From a virus (Duplodnaviria; Heunggongvirae; Uroviricota; Caudoviricetes), in IMG/VR virus record IMGVR_UViG_2585427747_000005: a stretch of 11,454 bases of DNA. The stretch is one strand, 5' to 3'. Of the stretch, positions 4,208 to 10,537 are shown piece by piece. Positions within the stretch are counted from its first letter, which is position 1, and each line of letters starts with the position of its first letter. Position numbers and translations under genes: made by a program. A model generated the notes under the pieces. That model was not told the origin of the DNA. It made no database searches and worked only from the letters and a program-made list of their open reading frames with translations.

Positions 4208-4507
4208 ATGAAACTTAAATATTCTGGCTTAACTGCCAGTGGCAACACTCACCCTAAATTTACGCGCGGCGATATTTACCGCGACCAGTACGGCGGCACG
4301 GTAATGATTAAGGGCGTGGAAGAACGGCGCGTAACCTACCGCCGTGAAGGTTACGAATATGATTGCGTGATGCCTGTTTATCAGTTCCGGCGTGATTTTT
4401 CTCTGGTACAGACCGCGCCGCATAACGTGTCCACCAGCAACGCCAGGGCACGGGCAAACATCCAGAAGCTGAAAACCATGATTAACGGATTCAGGGGTAA
4501 AAAATGA
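4208..4507 (+). CDS. Hypothetical protein
   Basis: 99-aa ORF, GGAGA Shine-Dalgarno; stop overlaps the start of the replication gene (ATGA). Confidence 0.5.
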   Translation: MKLKYSGLTASGNTHPKFTRGDIYRDQYGGTVMIKGVEERRVTYRREGYEYDCVMPVYQFRRDFSLVQTAPHNVSTSNARARANIQKLKTMINGFRGKK

Positions 4508-6258
4508 AACTGGCACCGAACGTAAAACAGCAGTCACGCGGCATAAAACACAAAGAAACAGAAGTCATTATTTTTGCGGGTAGTGATGCCTGGTCACACG
4601 CAAAACAATGGCAGGAACATGACGCGCGTATGGCCGGAGATAATGAGCCTCCTGTGTGGCTTGGGGAGCAGCAGTTATCCGAACTGGATAAGCTGCAAAT
4701 TGTGCCGGAAGGCAGAAAATCCGTGCGCATATTCAGGGCCGGATATCTTGCGCCAGTAATGATAAAGGCGATTGGTCAGAAGCTGGCGGCGGCAGGCGTA
4801 CAGGATGCAAATTTTTACCCTGATGGTATGCACGGTCAGAAGGTGGAGAACTGGCGCGAATATCTGGCCCGTGAGCGCCAGAATCTTTCTGATGGTCTGG
4901 TCATTGAGCTTCCGGTAAAGCAAAAGGCGCAACTTTCGCAGATGGCGGACAGTGAGCGCGCGCAGCTGCTTGCCGATCGCTTTGATGGCGTTTGCGTACA
5001 TCCTGAAAGTGAAATCGTTCACGTATGGCGCGGCGGGGGATGGTGTCCGGTCAGCACAATGGAACTTAGCCGCGAAATGGTGGCGATCTATTCAGAGCAC
5101 AGGGCCACTTTCAGCAAGCGCGTAATCAATAACGCCGTGGAAGCGTTAAAAGTTATTGCCGAACCAATGGGCGAGCCGTCCGGCGATTTGTTGCCGTTCG
5201 CCAATGGTGCGCTTGACCTGAAAACGGGGGAATTTTCCCCGCACACGCCGGAGAACTGGATCACCACGCACAACGGCATTGAGTACACGCCACCAGCACC
5301 AGGGGAGAACATCCGCGATAACGCGCCAAACTTTCATAAATGGCTTGAGCACGCAGCCGGAAAAGACCCGCGCAAGATGATGCGTATATGTGCCGCGCTG
5401 TACATGATTATGGCGAACCGGTACGACTGGCAGATGTTTATTGAGGCCACCGGAGACGGCGGGAGCGGTAAAAGTACATTCACACACATAGCCAGCCTTC
5501 TGGCAGGGAAACAGAACACGGTAAGCGCTGAAATGACATCGCTTGATGATGCTGGTGGACGTGCGCAGGTTGTCGGGAGTCGTCTTATCGTCCTGGCTGA
5601 CCAGCCGAAATATACAGGCGAAGGAACGGGCATCAAGAAAATCACGGGCGGTGACCCCGTGGAAATTAACCCGAAATACGAAAAGCGTTTCACGGCGGTA
5701 ATCAGGGCGGTGGTGCTGGCGACCAACAATAACCCGATGATATTCACCGAACGGGCCGGAGGTGTGGCACGTCGTCGCGTGATTTTCCGTTTCGACAATA
5801 TCGTCAGTGAGGCCGAAAAAGACAGGGAGCTACCGGAAAAGATCGCGGCTGAAATCCCTGTCATTATCCGCCGATTGCTGGCGAACTTTACCGACCCTGA
5901 GAAGGCACGGGCTTTACTACTGGAACAGCGTGACGGTGATGAAGCTCTGGCAATAAAGCAACAGACGGATCCGGTTATTGAGTTTTGCCAGTTCCTGAAT
6001 TTTCTGGAGGAAGCGCGCGGCCTGATGATGGGGGGCGGTGGCGATTCAGTGAAGTACACGACCAGGAACAGCCTTTACCGCGTCTATCTGGCGTTTATGG
6101 CATACGCAGGCAGGAGCAAACCGCTAAACGTAAATGACTTTGGCAAGGCTATGAAGCCAGCCGCGAAAGTTTACGGACATGAATATATTACGCGGAAAGT
6201 TAAGGGAGTAACGCAGACTAACGCAATAACAACAGACGATTGCGACGCGTTTTTATAA
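4504..6258 (+). CDS. Replication initiator: P4-alpha-family primase C-terminal domain / SF3-type NTPase
   Basis: 584 aa; Walker A GDGGSGKST, Walker B-like RLIVLADQ, D5_N-like segment LPFANGALDLKTGEF; no obvious TOPRIM primase motif seen in the N-terminal third. Confidence 0.85.
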   Translation: MKLAPNVKQQSRGIKHKETEVIIFAGSDAWSHAKQWQEHDARMAGDNEPPVWLGEQQLSELDKLQIVPEGRKSVRIFRAGYLAPVMIKAIGQKLAAAGVQDANFYPDGMHGQKVENWREYLARERQNLSDGLVIELPVKQKAQLSQMADSERAQLLADRFDGVCVHPESEIVHVWRGGGWCPVSTMELSREMVAIYSEHRATFSKRVINNAVEALKVIAEPMGEPSGDLLPFANGALDLKTGEFSPHTPENWITTHNGIEYTPPAPGENIRDNAPNFHKWLEHAAGKDPRKMMRICAALYMIMANRYDWQMFIEATGDGGSGKSTFTHIASLLAGKQNTVSAEMTSLDDAGGRAQVVGSRLIVLADQPKYTGEGTGIKKITGGDPVEINPKYEKRFTAVIRAVVLATNNNPMIFTERAGGVARRRVIFRFDNIVSEAEKDRELPEKIAAEIPVIIRRLLANFTDPEKARALLLEQRDGDEALAIKQQTDPVIEFCQFLNFLEEARGLMMGGGGDSVKYTTRNSLYRVYLAFMAYAGRSKPLNVNDFGKAMKPAAKVYGHEYITRKVKGVTQTNAITTDDCDAFL

Positions 6259-6270
6259 TTTTTTGCAATG

Positions 6271-6498
6271 GCTGTCTACCCTGTCTACCTGAGTAAAGAA
6301 AAATACATTTAATTCAGTATATTAACTTAGGTAGGCAGCCTTTTTTCACTGTCTACCTACTATCTACCCTCTCTACCTGATTTTACCTGAATCAGACAGG
6401 GAGGTAGATACGGGGTAGATAGTGGATAAAAGCACTCTACCCCGCTGAAAGCCGCGCCATTACTGGCATGAGAGCCAGTAAGGTAGATAAGGTAGACA
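6271..6498. repeat. Origin of replication: iteron array (TGTCTACC and variants, both orientations)
   Basis: TGTCTACC at 6273, 6282 and 6350; ATCTACC at 6362; CTCTACC at 6371 and 6434; inverted GGTAGATA/GGTAGACA at 6403, 6414, 6482 and 6491; immediately downstream of the replication gene. Confidence 0.7.
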
Positions 6499-6546
6499 AG
6501 GGGAGGCACAACTCAAAACTTTTTAAACGAGGGGGTAAAAATAAAA

Positions 6547-6804
6547 ATGCGCACATCAGGAAAACTTAATAATCAGAAGAAGCAGCATAACCGCGCCATT
6601 GACCTTACAGAGCACTGGCTGAGAGTGGCGATAAAAATCATCGACCGCAACACGGGGGAAGGATACGCGAAAGCACATCCCGACCTGATAAGCGCATTCA
6701 TGACCACGGCGGCGGCAAACTTTGCCACGCTGACAGAACGGGAGATTGCCGAAGCGGAACAGGTAACAACCATCAACGTTAAAACCGGAGAGGTGGAATC
6801 ATGA
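6547..6804 (+). CDS. Hypothetical protein
   Basis: 85-aa ORF with a GAGGGGG Shine-Dalgarno; stop overlaps the SSB start (ATGA). Confidence 0.5.
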   Translation: MRTSGKLNNQKKQHNRAIDLTEHWLRVAIKIIDRNTGEGYAKAHPDLISAFMTTAAANFATLTEREIAEAEQVTTINVKTGEVES

Positions 6805-7223
6805 CAGCACAGATAGCAGCTTACGGGCGGCTGGTGGACGACCCGCAGGTAAAACAGACCAGCAAGGGCACACCAATGACGCTGGCACGTATGGCGGTCC
6901 CCCTTCCGTGCAGCCAGGCAGATGACGGAACGGCGACGATGTGGTTATCCGTCCTGGCATTTGGCAGACAGGCCGAAGCACTGGAAAGGCACCGCAAGGG
7001 TGAACTCCTGAGCGTGGCGGGTAACATGCAGATCAGCCAGTGGACTGGGCAGAACGGAGAAACGCGGCAGGGCTGGCAGGTTATCGCAGACAGTGTAATC
7101 AGTGCGCGAACGGCGCGACTGGGCGGCAAAAAAGGTCAACAGGGCCAGGCTACTGACGCGCTGAACAGGGCAAAACAACAGGCGGGGAATGATGATCCGT
7201 ACGGGGATAACATACCGTTTTAA
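6801..7223 (+). CDS. ssb: Single-stranded DNA-binding protein (SSB-like)
   Basis: 140 aa; OB-fold-like conserved positions (W..V.AFG..AE, RKG, W....G..R) and an acidic C-terminal tip DDPYGDNIPF resembling the E. coli SSB D-IPF tail. Confidence 0.75.
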   Translation: MTAQIAAYGRLVDDPQVKQTSKGTPMTLARMAVPLPCSQADDGTATMWLSVLAFGRQAEALERHRKGELLSVAGNMQISQWTGQNGETRQGWQVIADSVISARTARLGGKKGQQGQATDALNRAKQQAGNDDPYGDNIPF

Positions 7224-9259: not shown

Positions 9260-9673
9260 ATGGCAACGAATGAAAGCATCATGACGCTACCGCTGGCGAG
9301 TAAATTTAAAGCCGAAGCGCGGGCAATGGCTGACAGAGGTTTATCAACCTACGAGGCCGTATATCAACTCAACAAACTGGAAGAGCAGGACAAGCCGCGC
9401 GCTGATGCGATTATGGCGCTTCATGAGCATAACGACTATCAGCCGCTGTTACGTGCAATGGCAAACGTGCCTTGTATCGATGTTGGTACGGCTAAAAGCA
9501 TCCTTAGCATGACCATAGAGCAGGAACGCCAGAAGGTTGCGCCGGAGCTTACCGCAGCCTTTGAAAACTTTATGGACATGCACAGCCCGCAAGCCGTTTC
9601 AGCTGGCATGGCATACGACGGCAGAAACCCGGGCGATGATGGCGACATCGAGCGCATACTGAAAACCATCTGA
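9260..9673 (+). CDS. Hypothetical protein, last gene of the head-module operon
   Basis: 137-aa ORF with an AGGGGG Shine-Dalgarno; acidic and helical-looking; no confident homolog recognised. Confidence 0.55.
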   Translation: MATNESIMTLPLASKFKAEARAMADRGLSTYEAVYQLNKLEEQDKPRADAIMALHEHNDYQPLLRAMANVPCIDVGTAKSILSMTIEQERQKVAPELTAAFENFMDMHSPQAVSAGMAYDGRNPGDDGDIERILKTI

Positions 9674-9702: not shown

Positions 9703-9770
9703 ACGGGTCCTTTCCGGCATATGGACCCGTTACGGGGCGGCGACCTCGCGGGTTTTCGCTATTTATGACG
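9703..9770 (+). other. cos: Lambda-type cos site (cosQ-like segment plus cosN GGGCGGCGACCT at 9735-9746)
   Basis: ACGGGTCCTTTCCGG...CCGTTACG|GGGCGGCGACCT|CGCGGGTTTTCGCTATTTATGA matches remembered lambda cos flanks, diverging only in the cosQ-cosN spacer. Confidence 0.8.
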
Positions 9771-9835: not shown

Positions 9836-10276
9836 ATGATTGATAAAGCTTGTTTTGTAAGTCAGCAGGAAATAGCTGAACATTTCAAGGTTAACAGAAC
9901 CACTATTCGCGCATGGACCAAACAGGGGATGCCGTATCTTAATGCGGATCGCGGAAAGTCTGGCGGTTATCACATCGGGCATACATTGCTTTGGTCTTCA
10001 GGTAAAAGCCGTCTTGAGGCCATCAGATATCACGTAGAAACCAGTGCGCTGGAAAAAATTATGTTTGCCAGGCTGCTTTCATCTGAGCGTGACGAGTACT
10101 CCAGTGAAGAAACAGAACATAGATTTGATGAAGGTTTACAGATTTACGGCTACTCACCGGAAGAAGTGAGCAAAGCGCGAAATAAAATGGCCGGCTTTCT
10201 GGCTGGGTGGCGTCATGCCGTAAGCGTTCGCCGTGCCAGCATGGAACAATCAGTCGTTACAGAACAGCAAAGTTAA
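9836..10276 (+). CDS. Terminase small subunit homolog (lambda Nu1-like wHTH); Rpp-like packaging-redirection candidate
   Basis: 146 aa; VSQQEIAEHFKVNRTTIRAWTKQGMPYL parallels lambda Nu1 KKQLADIFGASIRTIQNWQEQGMPVL; no large terminase gene in the window. Confidence 0.8.
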   Translation: MIDKACFVSQQEIAEHFKVNRTTIRAWTKQGMPYLNADRGKSGGYHIGHTLLWSSGKSRLEAIRYHVETSALEKIMFARLLSSERDEYSSEETEHRFDEGLQIYGYSPEEVSKARNKMAGFLAGWRHAVSVRRASMEQSVVTEQQS

Positions 10277-10469: not shown

Positions 10470-10537
10470 GCTCATAAATAGCGAAAAACCGCGAGGTCGC
10501 CGCCCCGTAACGGGCCATAATTCCAGGAAGGACCCGA
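10470..10537 (-). other. cos: Second cos copy in inverted orientation (cosN GGGCGGCGACCT on the minus strand, 10494-10505)
   Basis: Reverse complement reads CGGGTCCTTCCTGG...CCGTTACG|GGGCGGCGACCT|CGCGGTTTTTCGCTATTTATGAG, an imperfect inverted repeat of 9703-9770. Confidence 0.7.

Follow-up and report, generated by a model that had tools for sequence, protein, structure and literature searches.

A probable Rep-dependent replication origin in an EcCICFT073-type phage-inducible chromosomal island and its likeness to the origin of P4

Phage-inducible chromosomal islands (PICIs) of Gram-negative bacteria carry their replication origin immediately 3′ of the initiator gene, where two sets of iterons flank an A+T-rich region (Fillol-Salom 2018, ISME J, PMC6092414). 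One such island is EcCICFT073, located in the chromosome of Escherichia coli CFT073. Its rep gene and putative ori site were put on a temperature-sensitive plasmid in which an arabinose promoter drove rep; the rep-ori plasmid gave colonies at the restrictive temperature and a rep-mutant plasmid gave none, with p < 0.0001 stated in the legend both for pri-ori against pri-Δori and for pri-ori against Δpri-ori (PMC6092414). The published description treats the whole cluster of repeats as one origin (PMC6092414). Here we compare with this system a stretch of 11,454 bases, the IMG/VR virus record IMGVR_UViG_2585427747_000005, referred to in its whole length as the window, and in particular positions 6272-6499, which follow the gene of an initiator helicase, Rep (‘Pri-Rep’ in the PICI literature).

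Judged by its sequence, the window belongs to the EcCICFT073 type of E. coli PICIs. Over most of its length the island can be aligned with EcCICFT073 at 94-95% identity, Rep is identical to the EcCICFT073 Pri-Rep at 581 of 584 residues (99.5%) and positions 6240-6560 share 98% identity with the region between rep and the next gene in EcCICFT073. The arrangement is that of the described origins. The first iteron lies immediately 3′ of pri-rep, 14 bases past the stop codon, iterons 1-2 and iterons 3-11 occupy opposite sides of the A+T-rich positions 6290-6329, and both ori and Rep are homologous to a described member. We conclude that 6272-6499 very probably serves an EcCICFT073-type PICI as its vegetative origin of replication, and that this origin depends on Rep. 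Given the near-identity to the tested EcCICFT073 rep-ori pair the feature is therefore already known, as a PICI origin that has been described and tested for its function. Among the primers for deletions in the supplement to the EcCICFT073 study, EcoCFT073-pri-4c (reverse complement of ...CTGTCTACCCTGTCTACCTGAGTAAAG...) spans the first two iterons.

Rep, a protein of 584 residues, is encoded on the + strand at 4504-6258 with a TAA stop at 6256-6258. It combines an N-terminal Toprim-like domain, D5_N (Pfam match at residues 153-282), a superfamily 3 (SF3) helicase domain (DUF5906, 316-417) and a C-terminal Pox_D5/winged-helix region (Pox_D5, 487-575). Residues 141-573 align with residues 324-756 of the P4 alpha protein, with 40% identity over 434 residues (E = 2e-111), and the helicase core matches SaPI5 PriRep5 (PDB code 7OLA, E = 5e-15). 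Residues 488-576, encoded by 5965-6231 on the + strand, match the origin-binding domain of P4 alpha (PDB code 1KA8; phmmer, E = 1.1e-6) and are presumed to form the origin-binding winged-helix domain. No sequence match to the N-terminal primase part of alpha, some 320 residues, is detectable in Rep. The N-terminal domain of Rep is also found at the start of the E. coli proteins P0052, P0053 and P0057 (60-69% identical), which carry PF13481 (AAA_25, RepA-type helicase) in place of the SF3 helicase. From these sequences the domain appears to be a shuffled module common to different types of PICI initiator.

Counted on both strands, the 11,454 bases contain 11 copies of the hexamer TCTACC. Dinucleotide-preserving shuffles (n = 200) give a mean of 2.5 and none of the 200 reaches 11. 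Ten of the 11 exact copies fall within 6275-6496, the sole outside copy being at 738. The 9-mer CTRTCTACC, with one mismatch at most, is present in 10 copies in 6272-6499; as 8-mers, with one-mismatch cores allowed, 11 copies are good and a further one is degenerate. The cluster is 228 bases long and ends 48 bases ahead of the next start codon. An earlier note on this DNA, made from the letters alone, had proposed an iteron origin directly downstream of a replication NTPase, with at least ten motif copies in direct and inverted orientation within about 230 bp after the stop codon. The count and extent agree with ours, and the proposal is upheld by the position of the cluster 3′ of a D5_N/DUF5906/Pox_D5 helicase gene and by the 98% identity to the tested EcCICFT073 region. 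In effect the 98%-identical allele has already been put to the cloning test suggested in that note. The motif length of 7-8 bp given there needs some adjustment: an 8-mer is a fair description for the subfamily of the window, but the invariant core is only TCTACC and the 5′ TG or TA is a subfamily-specific extension.

Iterons 1 and 2 (TGTCTACC c TGTCTACC; 6273-6289, + strand, 8-mers at 6273 and 6282) are direct copies with a 9-base spacing, placed to the left of the A+T-rich stretch. This stretch, the presumed DNA-unwinding element, consists of the 40 bases 6290-6329 between iterons 2 and 3 and is 82% A+T. Iteron 3 (TGCCTACC; 6330-6337, - strand) is inverted and has one core mismatch, where EcCICFT073 has the exact core GGTAGA; the G for A at this place in the window is one of about eight base differences between the two oris. 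Iterons 4-6 are direct copies on the + strand at 6350-6377 (TGTCTACC at 6350, TATCTACC at 6361 and TCTCTACC at 6370, spacing 11 and 9), and the degenerate copy ATTTTACC follows iteron 6 at 6380-6387 (+). Iterons 7 and 8 (TATCTACC twice; 6403-6421, - strand, 8-mers at 6403 and 6414) have a spacing of 11, iteron 9 (ACTCTACC; 6434-6441, + strand) is a lone direct copy and iterons 10 and 11 (TATCTACC at 6482 and TGTCTACC at 6491; 6482-6498, - strand, spacing 9) form the right end of the origin. With iterons 1-2, iterons 10-11 constitute an 18-base inverted repeat that is 89% complementary. The single-strand folding of the region gives z = -5.6, a value for which the inverted iterons account.

Conservation was assessed on the window together with six diverged E. 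coli versions, the Reps of which are 81-98% identical. Of the hexamer-core columns 70% are invariant as opposed to 24% of the other columns in 6272-6499 (seven oris, Fisher p = 2e-10). The repeats are therefore under selection and do not represent a chance cluster. The cores of iterons 1 and 2 and of iteron 7 (6403-6408) are invariant in all seven oris, and that of iteron 8 (6414-6419) is identical in six of them. Iteron 9 occupies the same relative position in the element vB_KppS-Ant, described below, and in four further loci of our collection (L012, L081, L084 and L090). The A+T-rich stretch is present in all relatives, always between iterons 2 and 3, with the composition kept and the sequence variable. 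In one E. coli subfamily (loci L005-L008) the pattern of one inverted and three direct copies seen at 6330-6357 of the window is replaced by two inverted and two direct copies; the leading direct copy has gone and another inverted copy has been gained, a case of iteron turnover within a fixed scaffold.

The second system of value for comparison is P4, the replication of which needs a site termed crr in addition to ori. The alpha protein is reported to bind the type-1 iterons; in a text search of the literature the octamer TGTTCACC came up only in unrelated primers, and this route led to no paper stating alpha-iteron binding. The P4 record NC_001609 labels TGTTCACC ‘ori type 1 repeat’, both within ori (9310-9413) and within crr (4291-4590), and crr is directly 3′ of alpha. 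For the layouts, offsets of hexamer cores are counted from the first iteron and follow the direction of the initiator gene, > standing for direct and < for inverted copies. The window (core TCTACC) then reads >0 >9 <55 >77 >88 >97 <128 <139 >161 <207 <216, the one-mismatch copy at >107 being omitted, and P4 ori (core TTCACC) reads >0 >10 <51 >75 >86 >96. All six type-1 iterons of P4 ori thus match window iterons 1-6 in order and orientation, with offsets within 4 bases, and P4 ori has an A+T-rich stretch in the same gap. We found no paper stating that P4 ori and a PICI origin are collinear in layout.

The helicase and C-terminal origin-binding domains of the initiator are homologous to those of alpha and the order, orientation and spacing of the iterons are those of P4 ori. 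However the N-terminal primase domain of alpha is not found in Rep by sequence match, there is no TGTTCACC in the window origin region, and the window has a single contiguous cluster whilst P4 ori and crr are 4.5 kb apart and both required. The 8-mers TGTTCACC of P4 and TGTCTACC of the window have TGT..ACC in common, six of eight positions, the central dinucleotide being swapped from TC to CT. In P4 a distance of 4.3 kb separates ori from alpha, which is downstream of it, and ori carries type-2 repeats; the window origin abuts the 3′ end of rep and has five further iterons. The crr unit of 120 bp contains one inverted, three direct and two inverted type-1 iterons (<0 >16 >23 >34 <75 <84), loosely like window iterons 3-8 (<0 >22 >33 >42 <73 <84), and stands, like the window array, directly 3′ of the initiator gene. 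In P4 this unit is tandemly duplicated, with 60 bp between the copies, and the spacing match to the window is approximate. A rho-independent terminator precedes crr; none is seen at the window array (+ strand, 6150-6650). The earlier note was correct in giving TGTTCACC as the P4 iteron in ori and crr. The link it drew to the P4 alpha lineage is supported by the 40% identity of Rep and alpha, the match to 1KA8 and the collinearity with P4 ori.

A further element combines features of the two systems. vB_KppS-Ant (LR881103, ‘Escherichia phage’) is a capsid-encoding, satellite-like element of 16.5 kb with an origin directly 3′ of rep. Its eleven-iteron layout (core TTCACC; >0 >10 <51 >74 >85 >93 <124 <136 >169 <211 <219, the one-mismatch copy at <146 omitted) is collinear with that of the window over the full length, and is written in P4-type iterons TGTTCACC. 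The vB_KppS-Ant Rep, of the same 584-residue class, is 41% identical to the window Rep and its origin-binding domain is 52% identical to that of P4. With a PICI layout, P4 iterons and a P4-like binding domain this element therefore bridges both systems. The same layout grammar is followed with TGTTCAC iterons beside a Rep homologue of Serratia aquatilis (53% identical) and with TGTTCAT iterons beside one of Morganella morganii (52% identical).

More distant similarities are evident with the staphylococcal islands (SaPIs), the Reps of which bind, through a C-terminal winged helix, iterons directly downstream of rep and are self-loading 3′-5′ helicases (PMC9371898). SaPI origins resemble that of the window in being immediately downstream of rep, with an A+T-rich centre and an SF3 helicase as initiator, and have 6-12 short iterons with at least two per side in opposite directions (PMC9371898). 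The SaPI iterons are penta- or hexanucleotides unrelated in sequence, similarity to window Rep is detectable in the ATPase core only, and the Gram-positive host and divergent operon organization are unlike those of the window island. An iteron origin of the plasmid type (RepA, π, TrfA), with tandem 17-22-bp repeats, DnaA boxes and a non-helicase initiator, was considered and rejected. In the window the repeats measure 8-9 bp and are both direct and inverted, Rep is an initiator of the SF3 helicase class and the only DnaA-box-like sequence, GTGGATAA at 6422-6429, is not kept by relatives and is ascribed to chance.

Does the iteron sequence follow the protein that is presumed to read it? We assembled 72 distinct pairs of Rep C-terminus and ori from E. 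coli loci and 80 IMG/VR loci. A search of genome contigs with the single protein had yielded three loci, and the alignment-based IMG/VR search was far more productive; relatives in IMG/VR number at least 556. Six or more copies of TCTACC directly follow the gene of each of the 63 Reps with a QTN......F[L/I] tail, including those with an overall identity of 57-64%, as opposed to none of the nine with a P4-like DW[L/M]P tail. Four of these nine have TGTTCA-type iterons, two GTATAC-type and three no iterons within 330 bases. The two of GTATAC type (L091 and L093) carry repeats on this palindromic core, for example GGTATACA, arranged as two copies, an A+T-rich stretch and further copies, and by their sequence these may constitute another iteron word. 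The three without repeats within 330 bases of rep (L086, L089 and L092) have a terminator hairpin there, as is the case for P4 alpha.

A finer correspondence concerns the position two bases 5′ of the core. Reps with the residues F-G-KA, a group that includes that of the window, are accompanied by T at this position in 82-100% of sites, with one exception (L076/L077), and Reps with F-S-KA by C in 83-93% of sites. In the window subfamily T is found at -2 in 91% and a purine at -1 in 83% of sites, giving T[G/A]TCTACC. The Gly/Ser difference, which pairs with the T/C switch, precedes the presumed recognition helix, and may be one determinant of the iteron word. That about ten copies change in concert at -2 speaks in favour of recognition of the flank by the protein.

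The modules of the array vary in their arrangement. In three loci (L073, L076 and L087) the right-hand module, corresponding to iterons 7-11, directly follows rep and the left-hand module with its A+T-rich stretch is placed about 90 bases further on, whilst in L082 only the left-hand module is present, directly downstream of rep. Such swapped or separate modules, taken with the likeness to P4, argue from sequence that the array behaves as two modules, one P4-ori-like and the other crr-like. We consider it probable that the cis-acting origin is itself homologous between P4 and the Gram-negative PICIs, consisting in the latter of a P4-ori module and a crr-like module on a scaffold re-coded several times in step with changes in the winged helix. 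The words concerned would be TGTTCACC, TGTTCAC, TGTTCAT, T[G/A]TCTACC, C[N]TCTACC and possibly GTATAC. This layout homology with P4 ori and the pattern of re-coding between iterons and binding domain are modest additions to what has been published.

If the array is modular, is all of it the origin? The left module (iterons 1-6 and the A+T-rich stretch, 6273-6377) might alone be the origin, with the right module (iterons 7-11, 6403-6498) serving as a crr-like enhancer or as a copy-number element acting by handcuffing. P4 ori corresponds exactly to the left-module pattern and nothing more, the P4 crr unit resembles iterons 3-8 and is 3′ of alpha as the array is 3′ of rep, and the loci with swapped modules some 90 bases apart, or with the left module alone, indicate separable units. 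This proposal is compatible with everything seen. However the likeness to crr is looser than that to ori, with offsets up to 10 bases apart, and the publication treats the whole cluster as one origin (PMC6092414). We regard this division of labour as possible but rather doubtful, and as a refinement of the conclusion that 6272-6499 is the origin, which it does not replace.

Other functions can be considered for a cluster of short repeats. It stands between two co-oriented genes, ends just ahead of a start codon and is followed by a conserved leader, and, with no terminator-like site past rep on the + strand, transcription might run on into the array; the repeats might then be operator sites for a regulator, possibly Rep itself, of the genes from 6547 onward. 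Such an assignment is improbable. No + strand promoter consensus is present in 6150-6650, the sole sigma-70-like match being on the - strand and within shuffle expectation, and an A+T-rich core with eleven direct and inverted sites spread around it over 228 bases has the architecture of an origin and not of an operator, a layout shared with the experimentally defined P4 ori, annotated as rep_origin. Furthermore the EcCICFT073 ori-mutant plasmid differs significantly although rep is driven from the arabinose promoter, which indicates a function in replication and not in regulation (PMC6092414). A packaging or terminase-recognition site, cosB-like or pac-like, is more improbable still. Regions of the cosB and pac kind also typically contain short, repeated sites for protein binding, and it is the machinery of the helper phage that packages the island, but two exact lambda-type cosN sites are already present 3.2-4 kb away, as reported for EcCICFT073, the repeats co-vary with the C-terminal domain of Rep rather than with any packaging gene, and the same layout is found beside Rep in elements with quite different packaging modules.

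Having preferred a Rep-dependent origin we outline how it might operate. A helper phage would induce the island and Rep would be expressed from the unidirectional operon. By analogy with P4 alpha and SaPI Rep, the C-terminal winged helix would bind the T(G/A)TCTACC iterons, in oppositely oriented sets on either side of the 40-base A+T-rich stretch; Rep would then oligomerize on the iterons, melt the DNA at 6290-6329 and load itself as a hexameric 3′-5′ SF3 helicase with no need of a separate loader. On the same analogy, host enzymes and polymerase would copy the excised circle, a step that includes the source of the primer. The adjacent island-encoded single-strand DNA-binding protein (SSB) probably coats the unwound strands.

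Several points weigh against this reading, or at least should temper it. Rep is without the conserved Toprim catalytic residues, which bears on the priming step. The published experiments used the EcCICFT073 allele, which differs at three Rep residues and about eight ori bases, including a base of the iteron 3 core. The binding domain and the repeats are only 30-300 bases apart and the loci are related, so the counts given above are not independent events, and linkage or shared descent, without selection, could be behind much of the co-variation. A strongly conserved non-iteron block at 6442-6466, inside the origin, is left unexplained by the origin model. We know of no Gram-negative PICI for which direct binding of Rep to iterons, or the melting site, has been demonstrated.

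The block at 6442-6466 (CCGCTGAAAGCCGCGCCATTACTGG) contains a part, CTGAAAGCCGCGCCATTACTG, that is near-invariant across E. coli variants whilst its surroundings vary. It shows no Rfam family above threshold and no promoter match, and could be a host-factor site. A similar sequence, ctaaaagctgcgtcattactgg, occurs in L087, which has TGTTCA iterons. An exact 10-base direct repeat, CCGCGCCATT, is shared between this block (6452-6461) and the next open reading frame (ORF) (6591-6600), which may be due to chance. Overlapping the right side of the block, a hairpin at 6460-6481 (TTACTGGC/GCCAGTAA) keeps its stem in EcCICFT073 but not in L003-L008, and a different hairpin, ctgaaacccttg cgcca caagggattcag, is found at the same place in the more distant relatives L073-L077. 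A structured RNA was also considered and rejected; when 6000-6800 was scanned against Rfam, the only models to come up were eukaryotic miRNA hairpins below threshold, reflecting the inverted iterons. Outside the array, the stretch with the leader and ribosome-binding site of the gene that follows (AAAACTTTTTAAACGAGGGGGTAAAAATAAAA; 6514-6546, + strand) is near-invariant in the E. coli alignment and directly precedes the ATG at 6547.

The main genes of the window are all on the + strand. An integrase (1-1218) and an AlpA-like regulator (1503-1772) are followed by Icd-like genes and small ORFs, a DUF4222 gene (4208-4507) and rep. The origin is followed by a downstream pair (6547-7223) encoding an 85-residue protein (phrog_1231) and SSB, the same pair that comes next after ori in EcCICFT073, and then by homologues of a major capsid protein and a head decoration protein and by a small-terminase-like ORF (9836-10276). 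The last is flanked by two exact copies of the lambda-type cosN GGGCGGCGACCT in opposite orientation, at 9735-9746 (+) and 10494-10505 (-), and this agrees with the report of two functional cos sites in EcCICFT073. Integrase, AlpA-type regulator, unidirectional genes, helper cos sites and a size of about 11 kb, without tail or lysis genes, make up the PICI constellation. The DUF4222 gene, rep, the small ORF, ssb, the capsid and decoration homologues and the two cosN sites are common to the window and EcCICFT073; the PerC gene that follows ssb in CFT073 is absent from the window, and the insertion sites differ. A sequence identical to the window forms an island of about 11.3 kb in E. coli SW4848, where it splits tqsA, with the halves of that gene at both island ends, whilst EcCICFT073 is next to phoQ. 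At 1830-2855 the ORF structure and the RefSeq annotation are at odds. The window has an ORF of 341 residues, with a C-terminus that matches Icd-like/repressor PHROGs; the same stretch of the SW4848 sequence (L001, 6432-7457) is annotated as an ‘icd-like’ pseudogene, a reverse-strand YlcI/YnfO gene and a short Icd-like gene.

The ori sequence is present in 565 of 5,426 complete E. coli genomes, always in chromosomes and never in plasmids, and the copies fall in two main identity classes, at least 95% and 60-80%. A nucleotide search of the phage collection gave no match.

The origin itself needs no new explanation; the satellite family to which it belongs is well studied, and about one in ten complete E. 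coli genomes carries this ori sequence. The layout rule, two direct iterons, an A+T-rich stretch, one inverted and three direct iterons and so on, can be used to annotate origins beside alpha- or Rep-type helicases in satellites. The comparison suggests that P4 and PICI replicons are of common ancestry down to the cis-acting site. If true, the re-coding predicts distinct replication-specificity groups among E. coli PICIs, defined by T- or C-type flanks and TCTACC or TTCACC cores, and these could govern cross-activation between co-resident satellites.

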